From Candidatus Heimdallarchaeota archaeon (lineage in GTDB: Archaea; Asgardarchaeota; Heimdallarchaeia; Heimdallarchaeales; Heimdallarchaeaceae), in contig JAUVXV010000003.1 in NCBI GenBank assembly GCA_030603365.1, positions 32,001 to 96,000 of the forward strand: a stretch of 64,000 nucleotides of DNA, in the 5' to 3' direction. Position numbers and translations under genes: made by a program. The notes below the pieces were generated by a model. The model saw nothing but the letters and a program-made list of their open reading frames with translations, was not told where the DNA came from and made no database searches. Within the stretch, counting starts at the first letter, position 1. Each line of letters starts with the position of its first letter. This document shows positions 14,241-39,475 of the stretch, in pieces.

Positions 14241-16190
14241 TCAGATGACAATATTAAATAATTTATGTTGTGCTTCTGGTTCTCTACATCTCAATTCACT
14301 AATATTCACTTTTCTGATTCCTTTTACTGATTCTTCAATTCTTATTATTTCCATTCTCTGGGAAATGGAGCTTGTATTTTTTTCTAGTCTCAATAATTCT
14401 ATAGATTGAGATGTTAATTTCTGCTGTTCTTTCAAAATCTTGAGAGCTAATCTCTTTAAACCCCGATTCTCAGCAATCTTAAGTGCTTCTGCCAATTTAT
14501 TACGTGCATTATCTAGGTCCATTACGAGTAAATTCACTTGTGATTCTAAGATTAATGTTTCAATAGTGTAAATAGGAGAACCAAATTCTATTGTAAGTTC
14601 ATACATTTTAATAACACATTTATGTAGCTTATCTAGTTTTTTACCGTTATCACCGGTACTTAGACCTAAGAGGAGGACTTCGCAAAGTGTAATTAAGGCA
14701 TTTATCTGCGATTCGAGATGTGCTTCTTCTTCTAAATGCACATCTAGGAGAAATTCAGCTTTTATTCTATCACTTTTTTCAGTGCTTATCTTTAGAATTT
14801 TAGCTTCTGTCAGTCGATATAATTGTTTGAGACGCTTACTCCCCACATCTTCCTTAATCTCTTGCATTTCTTGTTGATATTCATTTGCTGACTCAATATC
14901 ATTGATTTCAGTTGTATAATGTATCAATGCTTCCAAAGTAAATGCGGTTGCAATTTTATGTCCTCTTTCTCTCCATATCTTCAAACTTTGTTTCTGCAAT
15001 TCAATTGCGCGTTCTATATGACCTAGACGCCAAAAGATGGAAGATTTCCGATGAAAACCCATGGCCAGTATTGTTTTACTTTCGAATTCTTTACTCAGTT
15101 CCATAAGTTCATCCTGTAATTTCAAACTTTCATCCAATTCTCCCTTAAATTCATAGATCTCTCCCATATTACATAAAACTGTTGTCAGAATCATATGTTT
15201 GACATCTGTGAAATAGTTCTTCGCTTTGGTGAAATATGCTAGAGCTTGGTCCAGCTCTCCAACAAGTTTTGAGTTCTCTCCTGCATAGAAGAGTGCCCAA
15301 GCTTCCATTTCATCATTTTTCAATGTTTTATAAATTTCTAGATTCTTTTCAAAATACTCCAATGCTTTTGCTCTATCTCCAATTCGTCTATAATATACCC
15401 CAAAATATCTAAAAATCAATGCTTTACCATTAGCTGAATTTAATTCTTCATAAACTCCCAGTGCTCTTTCTAGATATTCATGGAAAACTTGATACTCTCC
15501 CATTTTTTGATATGTATAACCGATAAATGAGAGCGTTCTGGCTAGAAAATACTTATCATCTAATGATTCTAAAACTTTTAAACACAACTTATAGTGTTCA
15601 ATTGATTTTAAGAAATCAGTATGTCTCCAATAAATCCTGGCCATCTCCCAATGGCATTTTGCTTCTTCTCTCTTGTTTTCAAATTTTTTAGTAAGTTCTA
15701 CACACTTATTATAGATTTCTAATATTTCTTTGAATTCAGCTTTTTTTCTGTCAGATGAGACTATTTTAAACCTTAGTAAAACAGCTTCTCTTTGTTTCAA
15801 CTCCTTAATATCATCTAATGCAATTTTTTCGAATATTTGCTCTGATTTTTCTAAAACTTTTTGAAAATCATCAGATTTCCCCTTGTATATGTAATAATCA
15901 GCTAAAGCAAGACTCGAATCGAACATAAGTAAATTATCCTTAACTTTTCCACTTTGTTCAAAGGCTTCTTTTGCAAGTTCATGTGCAACATCTACTCCTC
16001 CTCTATTTTCAGAGAATCTTGCAAACTGGACAACTGTTTCACTTTTTTGTATTTTAGCTCTAATTGTTTGTTCTTGTGGTAGGTTTTTCTTATTCAGTAT
16101 TTCATTTAAAACTTCTAATGCGTCAGGATATTTTCCATTATAGATTAGGATATTTACTCTCTCTAAATCTTGCGAAACAGATGAAGTCAT
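14241..16190 (-). CDS. Tetratricopeptide-repeat protein
   Basis: Serial TPR-like helical repeats (e.g. GDRAKALEYFEKNLEIY, GELDQALAYFTKA). Confidence 0.88.
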   Translation of the reverse strand: MTSSVSQDLERVNILIYNGKYPDALEVLNEILNKKNLPQEQTIRAKIQKSETVVQFARFSENRGGVDVAHELAKEAFEQSGKVKDNLLMFDSSLALADYYIYKGKSDDFQKVLEKSEQIFEKIALDDIKELKQREAVLLRFKIVSSDRKKAEFKEILEIYNKCVELTKKFENKREEAKCHWEMARIYWRHTDFLKSIEHYKLCLKVLESLDDKYFLARTLSFIGYTYQKMGEYQVFHEYLERALGVYEELNSANGKALIFRYFGVYYRRIGDRAKALEYFEKNLEIYKTLKNDEMEAWALFYAGENSKLVGELDQALAYFTKAKNYFTDVKHMILTTVLCNMGEIYEFKGELDESLKLQDELMELSKEFESKTILAMGFHRKSSIFWRLGHIERAIELQKQSLKIWRERGHKIATAFTLEALIHYTTEINDIESANEYQQEMQEIKEDVGSKRLKQLYRLTEAKILKISTEKSDRIKAEFLLDVHLEEEAHLESQINALITLCEVLLLGLSTGDNGKKLDKLHKCVIKMYELTIEFGSPIYTIETLILESQVNLLVMDLDNARNKLAEALKIAENRGLKRLALKILKEQQKLTSQSIELLRLEKNTSSISQRMEIIRIEESVKGIRKVNISELRCREPEAQHKLFNIVI

Positions 16191-16282
16191 AGGTTCACCA
16201 AATATAAAACATATAAAAATAAGGTTTTAGAAATTAAAACTTTTCCTAAAACCTCAAAGTGAATCAGATATTTTTTTGTTTT

Positions 16283-17731
16283 CTATAATTCTAAGAAAGA
16301 TTCGAAATCTATCTTTTTGTATCTCATTATTTCTATTAAGTATTCAGACGTATCTTTATCTAATGAAGATCCTGGGTATCTGTTGAGGAGCTTATCTACT
16401 TCTTCATTTGCTCTTTGTCCTATGGTTTTTCTTCCCTTGCCTTCCCATTCTTCTCTTGAAGATCTATCTACAACTTCACTTGGTAAGTAAAGTTCTTCTC
16501 TAAACCATTTCAGTGTGTGATCATGTGATAAAAGGTGTGTTTTATCTAAAAAGACTTTTAGTAAATCTTTTGCAATAGGTTCATCTCTTTGCGTAATCCC
16601 ATCAATGAATTTGTATGTCATTCCTGCGATTTCATTATCAATTACAACCTTCTGAATGCTTTGTGTTGATTCAAAGTTCATCATGCCTGCACCAGATATC
16701 ATGTTTACTCCTTTAATTCCAGCTAGAAGTGAACCCATTCCTGTTTCAAATCCAGATTGCATATCAAGAATTTTACCATCAGACATGCCTAAATAAGCAT
16801 GAGTTGGTAGATTGAGATATTTTCCAATCTCTGTATAACCTAGATCAATAAGGATAGTATCAACAGAAGCTAAATACATAGTTCCCTTTCTCATATCAAA
16901 CGCTGCAGGAGAACCACCCCAAATAACAGGGGCTCCTGGAGAAACGAGTTGAGTAATAACTAATCCCGCTAAGGTCTCAGCTGCATGCTGAACAATCGCC
17001 CCCAGTATGGTTACTGGAGCATTAGCACCTGTCATTGGCATAGAAACAAATTCTGAAGGTATTCCATATTTTGCACAATCAATAATACTTTGGCAAGTCA
17101 GATCACTCCACTTTAATGGTGGTGAAGGGCATGCATCAAATATTGCTAAAGGCTTTTTTCTGAGCTCCTCTTCACTTCCCCTAACTGCTACAAGCATGTC
17201 TTTCATTACTTCAAATGATTCCTTGACGAATGTTCCGGTTACAATTGGTTTAGATGAGTAAAGCAATGTAATTAACATCCTATATCTGTCTCCAATCTCT
17301 TCTGGTACATCAGAGCATACTATTGCTGTACTCTGAGCATGTATGTGTTCAAGTTGGTCAACAACTTTAGTGAAATCAACAAAATCCTTTGTAATAGCTG
17401 TCCTTATCTCATTAGTTTCAGAATCTAGAACATTTAGTGCTGCTGAACCAGGATCAAAACAAATGTTATCTCCCTCTAGTTTTGTTACTAAACCACCTTC
17501 TCTATCATAAAGAGGAATAGAGGAAGGAGCGCTTTTCAATGCTTTTTTTATTAAATCTGGAGGGAGTTTTGCACGCCTTCCCTCTAAATCTATATCTATT
17601 CCTTCATTTTGGAGAATTAGTATTGCTTCATCATTTTCTACAAAGAAACCCATTTCCTCTAAAATCTCCATTGCTTCAACTACAACTTTTTCCTTTATTT
17701 CCTCTTCAAGAATATTGATAACAGGTCTCAT
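16283..17731 (-). CDS. MttB-superfamily corrinoid methyltransferase, non-pyrrolysine type
   Basis: PSPPLKW, PMTGANAPVTILGAIVQHAAETLAGLV, QLVSPGAPVIWG; no in-frame UAG. Start taken at ATG 17731 behind a GAGGT SD. Confidence 0.9.
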   Translation of the reverse strand: MRPVINILEEEIKEKVVVEAMEILEEMGFFVENDEAILILQNEGIDIDLEGRRAKLPPDLIKKALKSAPSSIPLYDREGGLVTKLEGDNICFDPGSAALNVLDSETNEIRTAITKDFVDFTKVVDQLEHIHAQSTAIVCSDVPEEIGDRYRMLITLLYSSKPIVTGTFVKESFEVMKDMLVAVRGSEEELRKKPLAIFDACPSPPLKWSDLTCQSIIDCAKYGIPSEFVSMPMTGANAPVTILGAIVQHAAETLAGLVITQLVSPGAPVIWGGSPAAFDMRKGTMYLASVDTILIDLGYTEIGKYLNLPTHAYLGMSDGKILDMQSGFETGMGSLLAGIKGVNMISGAGMMNFESTQSIQKVVIDNEIAGMTYKFIDGITQRDEPIAKDLLKVFLDKTHLLSHDHTLKWFREELYLPSEVVDRSSREEWEGKGRKTIGQRANEEVDKLLNRYPGSSLDKDTSEYLIEIMRYKKIDFESFLEL

Positions 17732-18173
17732 TACTATTACCTCAAACAATTAATCATTTATGAATGTAGTAAATAAATATTTATAAGATTTTTGAAGATT
17801 AATTAAAAAAAAGTTTCTTAACTTAAGCATTGCTTTATAGTAATTACTATTATAAATAAAAGATTATTTATATTTTGATTTAATTAATTATAGATTTAAT
17901 ATATTGTTTATTAATAACAATTAAAAGTATTTGTTTAAATATATACTAATAAAAGAATAACTATTTAAAGATATGGTTTATTATATGTTAGACTAACTAT
18001 AATGCTCGATTATAAGCTAAAATACTAGAATCTCTCTCGAAAATTGACTTCGGTTGGGATATTAAATATTGAAAACTACTTTATTTACTTAGAAATGTTT
18101 AAAACCGTGAAAATTCGAAGATGATTCTTAATAAGTCAATATTACATTACTAGAAAACAATTCGGTGAAAAAA

Positions 18174-32033: not shown

Positions 32034-33080
32034 TTATTCCCAATATACTGGATCTCCGATTCCTATATACCAATAACAATAGCCACCTACAGGATATTTA
32101 TCAATTGCACCCTCTTTTGCTTGAGTAGCTATATAATCTTGAAATACAGCAGTCCATGTAATCTCACTTTCATCTGTATAAGTGAAATAGAGTTCTTTTG
32201 AATCTGAATATCTATTCGGTTCTACATTATAGGTGTCTATCAAACTCATGAAATAGGAATATCCTGCAGAGAGAGCTGGGTCCTCATTATCTGGCCAATT
32301 ATATCCATATAGAGGGATTCCACAATAGATTTTCTCATAAGGAATGGTTTTTACGGCATAATTCAGTACATTTTTTATCCAGCTGATAGGAGATATTTGA
32401 CCAGGATTACTTCCTCCCCAAGAATAATCATAAGTCATGATCATAATAAAATCACAAATCTCTCCTATGATTTCATAATTGAAAGCTCCTCCCCAACCAG
32501 TTTTCCAATCAGCTGATTTAGCAGGAACATCTATTGATAGAATATACTTAGAATCAAGATTATCTCTGAGATCCTGAAGGAACTCATTAAATACATCTCT
32601 GTCTTCAGCTGGTACACCCTCAAAATCTATATTGATGCCTGTACAATTATAAAGCTCAAGCAGATAATTTGCGGAAACGATGAAATTATTTACACAAGTC
32701 TCATTGTTAATTATCTCTGATATCAATTCAGAACTGAAGAATTCATCGTAGTTTGATACTAAGGGATGAATCTCAATATTATTGCTTCTACAGAACTCAA
32801 AAACTTCATTCGGAGTGACATCCAGATACCAGTGTTCATCAGTCATCGTGCCATTTGGATAAACTCTCCACCAAGCAGGTGAAATCATATCTATTTCTTC
32901 TGATGATTCTAAGAGTCTCTCATAAGAAGCATTATTCCAAGGGCTAAACCAATAGAAATTTCTCTTAATTGGATATTCAACATTGAAGTAGGGATTAAAG
33001 TAAAAGTACAATCCAATCCCAGTCCCCAAAATTCCTAGGAGAGTGATACCAGCAATTAACTTGGTATACAGAGGTTTCAC
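32034..33080 (-). CDS. Membrane-anchored glycoside hydrolase family 18 (YaaH/SleL-like)
   Basis: GINIDFE catalytic motif, IMTYDYSW, GIPLYGYNW. Confidence 0.9.
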   Translation of the reverse strand: MKPLYTKLIAGITLLGILGTGIGLYFYFNPYFNVEYPIKRNFYWFSPWNNASYERLLESSEEIDMISPAWWRVYPNGTMTDEHWYLDVTPNEVFEFCRSNNIEIHPLVSNYDEFFSSELISEIINNETCVNNFIVSANYLLELYNCTGINIDFEGVPAEDRDVFNEFLQDLRDNLDSKYILSIDVPAKSADWKTGWGGAFNYEIIGEICDFIMIMTYDYSWGGSNPGQISPISWIKNVLNYAVKTIPYEKIYCGIPLYGYNWPDNEDPALSAGYSYFMSLIDTYNVEPNRYSDSKELYFTYTDESEITWTAVFQDYIATQAKEGAIDKYPVGGYCYWYIGIGDPVYWE

Positions 33081-33164: not shown

Positions 33165-35090
33165 ATGAATTCAGTAGAAAAAATGTGCGAAAAATATGCT
33201 ATTGAAAATGCTTTAGGGCACGGAGAAGCACAAGTTGGTCCTGTTATGGGATTAATTCTGAAAGCTAATCCTGAAATGAAAAAAGATGCAAAAAGTATCA
33301 AAGAGATATTGGAAAAGAAAATTGCTTATGTTAATTCATTGAAACCCGAAGAGATACAACAGCTCGCACAACAAAAGTATCCTGAAATTTTACATGAGAA
33401 GGAGAGTGAAACTCAAGAAGGTACTGATTTCATCAGAGCAATCATAGAAGAACATATGAAAAGTGGAAGATTTGGGGGACGTGTTCATACTCGATTCCCA
33501 CCAGAACCGAATGGATGGTTACATATTGGACATGCCTATTCTATAAACTGGAATTACAGTATTGCACAGGAATATGGTGGTAAATTCAACCTTCGGTTTG
33601 ATGATACAAATCCTGTCACAGAAGAAGAAGAATTTGTACAATCAATTATCGCTGATGTGAAATGGTTAGGTGCAGACTTCGAGGATCGATTACTCTTTGC
33701 TTCTGATTATTTTGAACAATTATACGAATATGCAGTTCAGCTAGTTAAGAAAGGCTTAGCTTTTGTTGATGATTCAAGTGTCGAAGAAATAAGAGAAATG
33801 AGAGGAACTCTAACAGAAACAGGAAGAAATAGTTCATATAGAGATAGATCAATCGAAGAGAATCTAGATTTATTTGAAAGGATGAAAGCAGGAGAATTCC
33901 CAAATGGAAGCAAGGTCTTGCGCGCTAAAATTGATATGACCCATCCTAATCTTCTAATGAGAGACCCAATCATCTACCGAATCTTACATGCTACTCATCA
34001 TAATACTGGTGATAAGTGGTGTATCTACCCTATGTACGACTGGGCTCATGGTCTAGAAGATTCACTAGAAGGAATTACTCACTCTCTCTGTTCAATAGAG
34101 TTCGAAATTCATCGACCACTCTATGATTGGTATATAGATCAGCTGGAAGATGAGAACGGAAATCCGATATTTCATTCACAGCAAATTGAATGGGCAAAAC
34201 TGAATGTAACATATATGGTTCTTAGCAAAAGAAGAATGATAAGAGTAGTTAATGAGAAATTCGTTGACGGCTGGGATGACCCAAGAATGCTAACAGTAGC
34301 AGGTATGAGGAGAAGAGGAATCACATCTGAAGCAGTTCGAAACTTTGCACTAAGTGTAGGTGTTTCAAAAAGAGAAAAATTGATTGACATGTCTACTTTT
34401 GAATATTTCATTAGAGACGATTTGGATAAAAGATGTTCAAGAGTGATGAGTGTTCTCAACCCTCTAAAGGTAGTTATTACCAATTATCCAGAAGATATAG
34501 AAGAGCAAATTACTATTCAAAATCATCCAACTAACGAAGAAAAGGGTAACAGACAAGTTAACTTTGCTAGAACACTATATATTGAACAAGAGGACTTCAT
34601 GGAAAACCCTCCTGAGGACTATTATCGTTTAGCTCCAGGGAAAGAAGTTAGGTTGAAATATGCTTATTTCATAACATGTGAAAAAATTATCAAAGATAAT
34701 GAAACCGGTGAAATAAAAGAAATACATTGTACTTATGATCCTGAGACCAAAGGAGGAGTAGCTCCAGATGGTAGAAAAGTAAGTGGAACTATTCATTGGA
34801 TATCAGCTAACCACATCATTGAAGCAGAAGTAAGATTATACGATAGACTATATACAAAGGAAAACCCAATGGATACTGAAGAAGGAGAAGATTTTACAGA
34901 TTGCATTAATCCAGATTCTTTAACAGTGATAAAGTCCTATGTAGAACCATTCTTAAAGGATGTTGAACCTGGTTCAAGATTCCAATTTGAGAGAAATGGA
35001 TATTTTGTAGTGGATATAGTTGATTCTACTAAAGAAAATCTTGTGTTCAATAGAATAATTACCTTAAGAGATTCATGGGCAAAGAAATAA
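33165..35090 (+). CDS. glnS: Glutaminyl-tRNA synthetase with an archaeal GluRS-like N-terminal extension
   Basis: DFIRAIIEE...VHTRFPPEPNGWLHIGHA, LRFDDTNP, WCIYPMYDWAH..DSLEGITHSLCSIEF, VLSKR, GWDDPR, RLAPGKEVRLKYAY, FQFERNGYF. Confidence 0.93.
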   Translation: MNSVEKMCEKYAIENALGHGEAQVGPVMGLILKANPEMKKDAKSIKEILEKKIAYVNSLKPEEIQQLAQQKYPEILHEKESETQEGTDFIRAIIEEHMKSGRFGGRVHTRFPPEPNGWLHIGHAYSINWNYSIAQEYGGKFNLRFDDTNPVTEEEEFVQSIIADVKWLGADFEDRLLFASDYFEQLYEYAVQLVKKGLAFVDDSSVEEIREMRGTLTETGRNSSYRDRSIEENLDLFERMKAGEFPNGSKVLRAKIDMTHPNLLMRDPIIYRILHATHHNTGDKWCIYPMYDWAHGLEDSLEGITHSLCSIEFEIHRPLYDWYIDQLEDENGNPIFHSQQIEWAKLNVTYMVLSKRRMIRVVNEKFVDGWDDPRMLTVAGMRRRGITSEAVRNFALSVGVSKREKLIDMSTFEYFIRDDLDKRCSRVMSVLNPLKVVITNYPEDIEEQITIQNHPTNEEKGNRQVNFARTLYIEQEDFMENPPEDYYRLAPGKEVRLKYAYFITCEKIIKDNETGEIKEIHCTYDPETKGGVAPDGRKVSGTIHWISANHIIEAEVRLYDRLYTKENPMDTEEGEDFTDCINPDSLTVIKSYVEPFLKDVEPGSRFQFERNGYFVVDIVDSTKENLVFNRIITLRDSWAKK

Positions 35091-35159: not shown

Positions 35160-35235
35160 AGTCCCATGGTGTAGCCTGGAAACACTCCAGACTTTGAATC
35201 TGGCGCCGGGAGTTCAAATCTCCCTGGGACTACCA
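35160..35235 (+). tRNA. trnQ: tRNA-Gln (anticodon TTG)
   Basis: Acceptor AGTCCCA/TGGGACT, anticodon arm CCAGA-CTTTGAA-TCTGG, T arm GGGAG-TTCAAAT-CTCCC, encoded ACCA. Confidence 0.95.
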
Positions 35236-35270: not shown

Positions 35271-35987
35271 TTACCAAGGCATTTCGTTTCCTTGCCAATC
35301 AAAGAATTTTCCTGTATTTTCAATAACCAGATTATATATTACATCTCGCATTCCACTAACTGATTCCTCAGGTAAAAGCGGTGCATTTGTTGTATATTCC
35401 ATTGTTGTTTTTACCCATCCTGGGTGTATTGAAATTACAGTTATACCTTCTTCCACTAAATCAACAGACAACGTTTTAGTAATCATATTTAGAGCTGCTT
35501 TACTCGCACTATAACTGTAACCTCCACCCTTTTTACTTCTTCTAGTTATGCACCCGCTGCTGGAAGATATATTTACAATAACTGAGTTTTTTCCATTCTT
35601 CAATAGAGGTAAGAATTTCTCTACCATCATAAGAGGGGCTACAGTATTAACTTGAAAAATTCTACTAAAATCTTCTTCTTCTAACTTCCCAAGTTCATCA
35701 CAATATTTTTTTCCTCCAAAACGAATTCCTGCATTATTGATTAGAATATCAAGATAGTCTGTTTCATTAGAAATAAAATCAAAAGCTTTATTCCTTGATC
35801 CCTTATCTGATACATCTAAGTCAACCAAAGCTAATCTGTCAGGATATGTTTTTTTGAGTTCCACTAATTCTGGGTATTTCTCAGGATTTCTGCTACATGC
35901 AAAAACAAGATTCCCTTTTCCCAAATATTGCTTTGTGAATTCGAAACCTAAACCTCTACTTGCACCAGTAATGAAAATTCTTTTCAT
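35271..35987 (-). CDS. Short-chain dehydrogenase/reductase (CsgA-like)
   Basis: TGASRGLG, LINNAG, YSASK, HPGWVKT. Confidence 0.93.
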   Translation of the reverse strand: MKRIFITGASRGLGFEFTKQYLGKGNLVFACSRNPEKYPELVELKKTYPDRLALVDLDVSDKGSRNKAFDFISNETDYLDILINNAGIRFGGKKYCDELGKLEEEDFSRIFQVNTVAPLMMVEKFLPLLKNGKNSVIVNISSSSGCITRRSKKGGGYSYSASKAALNMITKTLSVDLVEEGITVISIHPGWVKTTMEYTTNAPLLPEESVSGMRDVIYNLVIENTGKFFDWQGNEMPW

Positions 35988-36092: not shown

Positions 36093-36167
36093 AGACCCGT
36101 AGTCTAGCGGCAAGGATACGGGACTCTGGATCCTGAGACAGGCGTTCAAATCGCCTCGGGTCTACCA
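36093..36167 (+). tRNA. trnQ: tRNA-Gln (anticodon CTG)
   Basis: Acceptor AGACCCG/CGGGTCT, anticodon arm CGGGA-CTCTGGA-TCCTG, T arm AGGCG-TTCAAAT-CGCCT, encoded ACCA. Confidence 0.95.
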
Positions 36168-36650
36168 TTATTTTTTACATTTTATGCAACCATTATTTCT
36201 GTATAAGGTTTTATCTTGGCATTTTTCACAAAATTTTATCTCAAGATTATCTAAACTAAGTCTAGACATTTTTTCGCCCAAATCATCTTTATCAAAATAT
36301 TCAATCAGATAAACGTGAGGACTACCTTCAACCATCCTAGATAAAGGTTTATTCACTTCAGTAAGTAAACAGATCACTGGAATGTCATGTTCATAGGCAT
36401 ACATAATCTCCATCCCAACTCCATGGGAAGGTTCATTCACATCAGCTATAATCTTACTTGATTGTTTTAACCAGTTTAAATCTCTTTCAAAAATGACTTT
36501 AGATGGGGCGTCATCCATTTTTCCAGGAACAAACGGATGATAGTTCTGAGATTCAACATATTCAATTAGAAAATCCAAAAGAGAGAAATCTAATTGTTGT
36601 GCCTTAATCATAGAACAAGCTATGTAAACATTCTTGTTTTCACTATTCAT
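36168..36650 (-). CDS. Nucleoside 2-deoxyribosyltransferase/DNPH1(Rcl)-like N-glycosidase with a C-terminal zinc ribbon
   Basis: VYIAC, IFERDLNWL, PSHGVGME, LSRMVEG; CxxC...CxxC tail. Confidence 0.85.
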   Translation of the reverse strand: MNSENKNVYIACSMIKAQQLDFSLLDFLIEYVESQNYHPFVPGKMDDAPSKVIFERDLNWLKQSSKIIADVNEPSHGVGMEIMYAYEHDIPVICLLTEVNKPLSRMVEGSPHVYLIEYFDKDDLGEKMSRLSLDNLEIKFCEKCQDKTLYRNNGCIKCKK

Positions 36651-39398: not shown

Positions 39399-39475
39399 AG
39401 CTCCATAGTCTAGTGGCCAATGATACAGGGATATTTATCACTGTGGCGGATGTTCGAATCATCTTGGAGCTACCA
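39399..39475 (+). tRNA. tRNA-Gln-like gene with an aberrant anticodon arm (pseudo-tRNA or non-canonical tRNA)
   Basis: Acceptor AGCTCCA/TGGAGCT + ACCA; D arm TAGTCTAGTGG like tRNA-Gln(CTG); T arm GGATG-TTCGAAT-CATCT; anticodon arm CAGGG-ATATTTAT-CACTG (8-nt loop, G.A mismatch). Confidence 0.8.

Follow-up and report, generated by a model that had tools for sequence, protein, structure and literature searches.

A bacterial-type glutaminyl-tRNA synthetase with an N-terminal domain like that of archaeal glutamyl-tRNA synthetase in Heimdallarchaeaceae

The gene for glutaminyl-tRNA synthetase (GlnRS) described here lies at positions 33165 to 35090 of a 64,000-nucleotide stretch of DNA (the window) from contig JAUVXV010000003.1 of a Candidatus Heimdallarchaeota archaeon. 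Its product combines a GlnRS body of bacterial type with an N-terminal helical domain homologous to that of archaeal glutamyl-tRNA synthetase (GluRS), and two tRNA-Gln genes lie downstream on the same strand. On balance, the protein is likely an imported bacterial GlnRS fitted with the N-domain of the resident GluRS, an addition which would aid the use of archaeal tRNA-Gln. The features in question are the following.

33165..35090, + strand: chimeric GlnRS gene, complete; ATG start, 641 aa plus stop, matching the open reading frame (ORF) as given
33165..33395, + strand: N-terminal helical domain, residues 1-77, homologue of the N-terminal 'YQEY' domain of archaeal GluRS
33396..33428, + strand: acidic flexible linker, residues ~78-88 (HEKESETQEG...), with a predicted local distance difference score (pLDDT) <50 at 78-85
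33429..35087, + strand: GlnRS body of bacterial type, residues 89-641, made up of a Rossmann catalytic domain and a pair of beta-barrel anticodon-binding domains
34143..34169, + strand: clade-specific insertion, about residues 327-335 (EDENGNPI), preceding the KMSKS strand
35160..35235, + strand: tRNA-Gln(UUG), with A1:U72, G2:C71, U3:A70, A73 and encoded CCA, 70 bp past the GlnRS stop
36093..36167, + strand: tRNA-Gln(CUG), with A1:U72, G2:C71, A3:U70, A73 and encoded CCA

By its sequence, the part of the protein from residue ~89 to residue 641 is a GlnRS of bacterial type. Pfam places tRNA-synt_1c at residues 107-421, tRNA-synt_1c_C (PF03950) at 424-525 and tRNA-synt_1c_C2 (PF20974) at 542-617 of the 641-residue chain, and the glnS equivalog model TIGR00440 (NCBIfam) scores 688.5 bits against a cut-off of 425.8, residues 107-640 matching the model over its entire length (positions 1-524 of 524). 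The archaeal GluRS models remain below their cut-offs on the whole protein, with alignments beginning at residue 2-5. Among solved structures, the body scores highest with the bacterial enzymes of P. aeruginosa (663 bits), E. coli (649) and Deinococcus (486), compared with ~400 bits for human GlnRS, 385 for yeast GlnRS and 219 for the GluRS of M. thermautotrophicus, which aligns from residue 3. The class I motifs are present as LHIGHA at 119-124 (HIGH 120-123) and as VLSKR at 352-356, the counterpart of E. coli VMSKR, and the leucine of the unpairing loop at the acceptor end is conserved (L216, E. coli Leu136). Cys309 occupies the position of E. coli Cys229, where the GluRS of the same genome has arginine; from GlnRS/GluRS engineering work we take this position to be the pocket residue of Gln type, replaced by Arg in GluRS of the archaeal/eukaryotic type. 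All 100 close relatives examined keep the cysteine (80 of them bacterial, 14 N-extended and 6 of Hodarchaeales type), so that family membership and this conserved residue lead us to infer that the body charges tRNA-Gln directly with glutamine. The full-length AlphaFold2 (AF2) model has a mean pLDDT of 92.9, with beta strands in the anticodon-binding domains. Two candidate characters of the body are less clear-cut: the insertion at ~327-335 is missing in 97% of bacterial relatives, and it is ambiguous as a common Asgard trait, since the Hodarchaeales-like family has another insert at the site and P0088 none; the position of E. coli Asp235 is Ile, Val or Asn in 14 of 14 N-extended enzymes, a specificity weakened by the fact that only 62% of close bacterial relatives carry Asp.

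The region ahead of the body tells a different origin. Residues 1-106, in which no Pfam family was found, GatB_Yqey and the eukaryotic R1/R2 domains included, match on their own only archaeal GluRS models, and these at their first ~85 positions (NF003169, profile positions 3-87, E 3.3e-16, 59 bits; TIGR00463, positions 2-81, E 7e-10). Profiles of 81 N-domains from GlnRS and 29 from Asgard GluRS, compared with hhalign, match at a probability of 99.6% (E 2e-24, 86 columns), and the N-domain of the GluRS encoded in the same genome is 29% identical (E 2e-10) and collinear from residue 1. A word-indexed search with residues 1-100 returned other N-extended GlnRS only and no GluRS, which reflects the sensitivity limit of the index. 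Modelled alone by AF2, the domain is a helical bundle (pLDDT 84) with helices at residues 3-19, 24-34, 36-58, 61-71 and 73-83; in the full-length model it is placed ahead of the Rossmann fold, tethered by the disordered acidic linker 78-85, whose length and sequence vary among homologues. The original prediction had placed a bacterial-style GlnRS from about residue 88 onward and a segment resembling the N-terminal domain of archaeal GluRS at residues 1-80; both boundaries hold, and the body falls within bacterial-type GlnRS in all trees.

Of 400 Asgard genomes, 43 yielded a GlnRS, and these belong to no more than three families of one class: the window's own family, Heimdallarchaeaceae (f1; 20 of 30 genomes, full length with the N-domain), a further family of Heimdallarchaeia (f7; 10 of 12, with the N-domain) and a Hodarchaeales-like family (f5; 12 of 22). 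In f5 the match begins at residue ~62-88 and the open frames extend at most ~38 codons upstream of it, leaving no room for an N-domain. Body trees were calculated with FastTree (164 sequences), with a quick IQ-TREE search and by a full maximum likelihood (ML) search on 49 sequences (LG+G4, log-likelihood (lnL) -37493). All three place the Asgard GlnRS among short-branched bacterial GlnRS, apart from a fully supported (100%) clade of eukaryotic enzymes, which were recognised by their R1/R2 domains; the N-extended Asgard GlnRS form a fully supported clade, and so do those of f5. In a tree with 80 named bacterial sequences, the N-extended and f5 enzymes constitute one clade (SH-like support 99) nested in a bacterial group (99) that comprises at least 599 species from more than 20 phyla, including Calditrichota, Chloroflexota, Bacteroidota, Planctomycetota, Acidobacteriota, Bacillota and Desulfobacterota. 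The bacterial GlnRS among which the Asgard enzymes fall are 63% identical to the window protein, the eukaryotic ones ~42%. From the tree, the very unequal distribution and the identity levels, import from bacteria is the best-supported reading, though statistically not closed.

With regard to the source of the N-domain, 18 GlnRS N-domains were aligned with 55 Asgard GluRS N-domains from 25 families. The GlnRS N-domains bear a one-residue deletion (H-G versus HxG) and a K-Y-P-E motif, both common only to the GluRS of the f1 genera g1, g2 and g4; the remaining Asgard GluRS, those of f7, f5 and the f1 genus g5 included, do not share the deletion, and their motif position is mostly of I-A-P-E type. 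In the ML tree of this domain, the GlnRS N-domains (SH-aLRT 99) cluster (90) with the GluRS N-domains of their own order (f1, f3 and f4), all other Asgard GluRS standing outside that cluster. Because of the shared deletion and motif, the N-domain tree, and the lack of the domain in the bacterial relatives and in the f5 sister enzymes, it would have been added after the import, copied from the resident GluRS of the Heimdallarchaeaceae lineage; by these sequence criteria, then, it is a secondary gain from the host's own family, in agreement with the earlier proposal that a GlnRS had taken up the appendage of the host GluRS. Apart from this, Asgard GluRS (loci L043-L102) fall into two sequence types and a further variant. 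Type 1 has PEPxGxxHxGH and DTNP motifs, like eukaryotic GluRS/GlnRS, and occurs in f1-f4, f7, f9, f12, f29 and f32, type 2 has PYPSGPLHIGN and DDTIG, in f5 and several other Asgard families, and a third variant has PAPSGALH... and EDTDP, in f22, f24, f25 and f28.

The tRNA-Gln genes provide a second line of argument. The two downstream of the window's GlnRS, both of archaeal type, are the only ones in the 3.65 Mb assembly (ARAGORN, introns on and off), and tRNA-Gln genes adjoin GlnRS in all three families: in f1 on the same strand, ~70-330 bp downstream and in some cases with introns; in f7, where the linkage was seen in G081; and in f5, where the linked gene is convergent with GlnRS. In f1 and f7, which possess the N-domain, tRNA-Gln retains the archaeal discriminator A73, with two CUG isoacceptors bearing G73 as exceptions, and often has U3:A70 or A3:U70 in place of C3:G70. 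In f5, which lacks the domain, the GlnRS-linked tRNA-Gln has G73, the identity base of E. coli GlnRS; A73 is found in GlnRS-negative f5 genomes (G070, G075) and in families f3, f4, f9 and f31. The complete single-contig f5 genome G066 (L035/L248) contains a linked convergent G73 pair and, besides gatE, a separate A73 tRNA-Gln(UUG), an arrangement suggestive of parallel and perhaps orthogonal Gln-tRNA routes, two in number. The association of the domain with A73, and of its absence with G73, is a correlation among related genomes that supports, without proving, a role of the domain in handling archaeal tRNA-Gln. Of the original claim that the domain serves the recognition of archaeal tRNA, the expected tRNA pattern has thus been found; the purpose itself continues to be inference, and the domain is not basic.

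Further observations on tRNA genes were made along the way. In some relatives (L195, L203 and L204) the tRNA-Gln(UUG) downstream of GlnRS has an intron of 29-31 nt after position 38-39 and is missed by ARAGORN without the intron option. At 39399-39475 (+) of the window, a tRNA-like gene combines an A1:U72/A73/CCA acceptor and a tRNA-Gln-like D arm with an anticodon loop of 8 nt (ARAGORN 'attt'). The gene gives no match to the Rfam tRNA model, even at E<=1; it may be an unusual tRNA or else a copy of tRNA-Gln in decay. 'tRNA-???' calls of a similar kind adjoin GlnRS in L007-L009 (positions 1138-1245).

The genome of the window also encodes the components of the indirect pathway. Its GluRS (G000:C16:2926-4617) is archaeal and keeps the N-domain (TIGR00463, 415.6 bits, above the cut-off), and gatE and gatD are adjacent (G000:C5:48810-52055), each above its own cut-off, as the original prediction had proposed to check. 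GatE was found in 78 of 83 Heimdallarchaeia genomes, with or without GlnRS. With GluRS and GatDE both retained, Gln-tRNA-Gln can probably be made by two routes in this organism. The GluRS of the window's family is unusually divergent, with 37-43% identity to the GluRS of sister families and of its own genus g5, and the family's GatE scores ~375-410 bits compared with 540-650 in other Heimdallarchaeia families; both could reflect relaxed or changed constraint once GlnRS was present.

As for the neighbourhood, GlnRS and the tRNAs are surrounded by functionally unrelated genes: 32034-33080 (-) encodes a GH18 glycosyl hydrolase, 35271-35987 (-), which separates the two tRNA-Gln genes, a short-chain dehydrogenase, and 36168-36650 (-) a nucleoside 2-deoxyribosyltransferase-like protein. 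Beside the GlnRS locus, genes of mobile elements were not seen. Elsewhere in the window, a gene at 16187-17749 (-) encodes a trimethylamine methyltransferase of the MttB family (Pfam MTTB, E 6e-85) whose frame stays open only with readthrough of a single in-frame TAG, with an Rfam PYLIS_3 element inside it at 16687-16786; together the in-frame TAG and the element suggest that the archaeon uses pyrrolysine.

The history that emerges would run as follows. A bacterial-type GlnRS gene would have entered Heimdallarchaeia, probably once, and in the lineage containing Heimdallarchaeaceae it would have been fused at its 5' end, via a short acidic linker, to a copied GluRS N-domain of ~80 residues and 'YQEY' type. 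In the fused enzyme, the body would load tRNA-Gln with glutamine, and the N-domain, tethered as in GluRS, would provide an extra or altered contact with archaeal-type tRNA-Gln (A73, A1:U72), making up for the absent bacterial identity base G73. The Hodarchaeales-type sister would have gained no domain and would rely instead on linked tRNA-Gln genes with G73. Along these lines, Heimdallarchaeia would present two alternative natural solutions to the supposed incompatibility of GlnRS and archaeal tRNA-Gln, one on the side of the enzyme (N-domain, A73 kept), the other on the side of the tRNA, where G73 appears on dedicated GlnRS-linked copies and the A73 copies are presumably left for GluRS/GatDE. 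The domain composition, the homology of both parts, the phylogenetic placement, the gene linkage and the tRNA features are observed; that the enzyme charges glutamine, that its N-domain binds tRNA and that the gene passed from bacteria to archaea are predictions drawn from them.

Several results weigh against this history. When bacterial GlnRS were constrained to be monophyletic with the Asgard enzymes outside and basal, the tree was 37.5 lnL units worse and was not rejected by the approximately unbiased (AU) test (p-AU 0.15), the full ML search and the test having been run under the LG+G4 model alone on 49 rows. The persistence of GatDE and GluRS is unexplained if GlnRS suffices. N-extended GlnRS occurs also in f7 and in f1 genus g5, whose GluRS lacks the deletion, a situation that needs later spread or gene conversion. 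The affiliation of the domain with the GatB/YqeY superfamily (PF02637) rests on Nureki et al. 2010 and could not be confirmed independently here: at E<=1, Pfam GatB_Yqey matched 0 of 38 N-domains, hhalign against the genome's own GatE gave E 0.27, and the structural similarities to the C-terminal tail of YqeY 8xjg (Z 5.0, root-mean-square deviation (rmsd) 1.9 A over 46 residues, 22% identity) and to the N-terminal domain (NTD) tail of yeast Gln4 (3TL4, 119-184; Z 4.2, rmsd 4.5 A over 62 residues) fall on the expected subdomains but do not rise above the noise of small helical bundles. Foldseek found nothing for the N-domain in the Protein Data Bank at E<=0.001 (best TM score 0.47, on the 3TL4 tail 119-184), and the VIA structure comparison gave no match above noise. 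Finally, the domain carries little net charge (on average -1.4 in 18 sequences), which sets it apart from generic RNA-binding appendages. With respect to the third of these points, the f7 GlnRS are nested inside the f1 GlnRS in the body trees, and together with the deletion-less GluRS of f7 and g5 this implies that the fused gene, perhaps with its tRNA, seems to have moved within Heimdallarchaeia. In f7 (G081:C20:30306-32276; G084:C54:67246-68298) a second, lower-scoring gatE is located on the GlnRS contig, 20-50 kb away, a hint that the fused GlnRS may have travelled as part of a larger block.

Of the other explanations, one accepts the same chimeric origin and sees in the N-domain a protein-protein or regulatory module that docks to a partner of GluRS, for instance GatDE, an elongation factor or an assembly of transamidosome-like or multi-synthetase type. 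The roughly neutral charge of the domain would suit such a module, as would the retention of GatDE and GluRS beside GlnRS in nearly all these genomes and the fact that the domain, whose function is unmeasured, is disordered in the only GluRS crystal structure (PMC2978374); nevertheless, we consider it unlikely, because the related appended domains of Deinococcus and yeast GlnRS act on tRNA (PMC3333875) and the presence of the domain follows the discriminator of tRNA-Gln. Still more doubtful is an ancestral Asgard GlnRS, basal to all bacterial GlnRS, which would have arisen from archaeal-type GluRS in the Heimdallarchaeia or proto-eukaryote lineage with the N-domain by descent, the bacteria and the domain-less Hodarchaeales forms having obtained or derived their GlnRS later and lost the domain. 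The Asgard-basal topology just mentioned is compatible with it, the N-domain is placed as it is in GluRS, with archaeal GluRS aligning full-length, and several eukaryotic GlnRS alignments reach back into residues 24-47. The ML tree, however, puts the Asgard enzymes deep among bacteria, to which they are also closest in identity, and GlnRS was found in just three Asgard families of one class, compared with several hundred species of bacteria from over 20 phyla. Moreover, an old domain should be equidistant from the various GluRS, whereas its nearest kin form a shallow same-family clade with a shared indel, and hhalign of the N-domain against the pre-catalytic (R2) region of eukaryotic GlnRS yields a probability of only 12% (GluRS N-domains against that region, <1%). 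The transfer assumed in the original prediction is consequently favoured by the nested ML tree and kept short of certainty by the unrejected basal alternative.

That the gene product is no dedicated GlnRS, being a GluRS-like or relaxed-specificity paralogue or a decaying redundant gene, appears highly improbable. It could be argued from the continued presence of GluRS and GatDE and from a TIGR00463 score of 388 bits, just below the cut-off of 401.75; it is countered by a TIGR00440 score far over the cut-off, by the invariant Gln-type cysteine and by an intact, confidently modelled reading frame conserved at 60-89% identity in ~30 genomes. An artefact, either a chimeric contig or bacterial contamination of the bin, can practically be dismissed. 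The assembly is a draft resembling a metagenome-assembled genome (3.65 Mb, 89% complete, 3.4% contamination); on the other hand, the window comes from a contig of 365 kb, the flanking genes and tRNAs are archaeal, the GC content is level over the GlnRS gene, and the closest homologues of the enzyme are labelled Heimdallarchaeaceae or Heimdallarchaeota. Above all, it is not an assembly chimera because the same architecture of 636-657 aa, with the junction inside one ORF, recurs in ~30 other independent genomes of two Heimdallarchaeia families as well as in many metagenome contigs, which refutes the artefact that the original prediction had allowed for.

The significance of an imported and refitted GlnRS becomes apparent against the literature. 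Reviews from 2022 describe all archaea as lacking GlnRS and regard the identity elements of archaeal tRNA-Gln (A73, A1:U72) as a block to its transfer (PMC9499178, PMC8762117); a 2024 preprint mentions GlnRS in passing beside cox genes in Hodarchaeales and Kariarchaeaceae (bioRxiv 10.1101/2024.07.04.601786), and no paper was found on the N-domain fusion or on the linkage of GlnRS and tRNA-Gln. Contrary to the reviews, the locus would represent a transferred GlnRS long kept in the archaeal class closest to eukaryotes, and it suggests how the barrier was crossed, namely by a helper domain borrowed from the resident GluRS. As the sister lineage altered the tRNA instead, the domain hypothesis is directly testable. 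The locus would in addition be a natural case of coexisting direct and indirect Gln-tRNA routes, and such enzyme/tRNA pairs may serve as orthogonal pairs. If the ancestral reading were true, a GlnRS with a GluRS-type N-domain would have arisen in the Asgard or proto-eukaryote lineage and bacteria would have received it from there.

The enzyme may be compared with several known systems. With bacterial GlnRS (E. coli GlnS, PDB 1GTR, 1QTQ and 1O0B; P. aeruginosa, PDB 5BNZ) the body aligns end to end at the scores given above and shares the HIGH motif, the KMSKS-type VLSKR, the unpairing-loop Leu, the Gln-pocket Cys and both beta-barrel domains; the window enzyme differs by 88 additional residues of N-domain plus linker, by an insertion of 5-6 residues at 327-335 and by its archaeal host, and the window's tRNA-Gln has A73 and U3:A70 or A3:U70, compared with G73 and G3:C70 in E. 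coli. In its overall domain order the window enzyme resembles archaeal non-discriminating GluRS (M. thermautotrophicus, PDB 3AII; NF003169/TIGR00463); its catalytic body, however, shares only ~31% identity with the GluRS of the genome, scores below the GluRS cut-offs and is a member of the GlnRS family. The N-terminus of archaeal GluRS was named the YQEY domain (Nureki et al. 2010, PMC2978374), and if this assignment holds, the present case would be the third independent YqeY/GatB-like appendage on a GlnRS, after the eukaryotic N-terminal and the Deinococcus C-terminal ones. A GlnRS with a helper domain was already known; the novelty would be a YqeY-type domain that is appended at the N-terminus and taken from the host GluRS.

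The GlnRS-YqeY fusion of Deinococcus radiodurans (PDB 2HZ7; NF011291) is likewise a bacterial-type GlnRS with an appended helper domain related to YqeY/GatB, and NF011291 is the best-scoring model for the window protein (827 bits), though it covers model positions 8-558 only. The appended domain of Deinococcus is C-terminal (model ~559-769) and absent from the window protein, which ends at residue 641 and has its GluRS-derived domain at the N-terminus, so that the database name 'GlnRS/YqeY domain fusion protein' is right only by accident. Other appendages were encountered among the cluster representatives P0123, P0124, P0143 and P0185: two enzymes whose bacterial-like body is extended at the N-terminus by ~186 aa of GST_C-like sequence, one enzyme with a C-terminal tRNA_bind domain (Trbp111/EMAP-type) and one 651-aa GlnRS bearing only the eukaryotic R2 domain. 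Eukaryotic GlnRS (yeast Gln4, PDB 3TL4; human QARS1, PDB 4R3Z) also carries an N-terminal helical appendage, and in the yeast enzyme this GatB-like domain raises the affinity for tRNA-Gln (PMC3333875). It comprises ~190-250 aa compared with ~80 aa in the window protein, in which Pfam finds neither PF04558 nor PF04557, and the bodies fall in separate clades; the parallel with the eukaryotic NTD that had been drawn at the outset is thus reduced to analogy, and on these sequence grounds the chimeric GlnRS is neither an ancestor of eukaryotic GlnRS nor an intermediate toward it. A further system to compare is the Hodarchaeales-type GlnRS, a sister clade apparently of the same import that is also linked to tRNA-Gln and retains GatE, and that differs by the lack of the N-domain and by convergent linked tRNAs with G73, at least one of its genomes keeping an A73 tRNA-Gln elsewhere.

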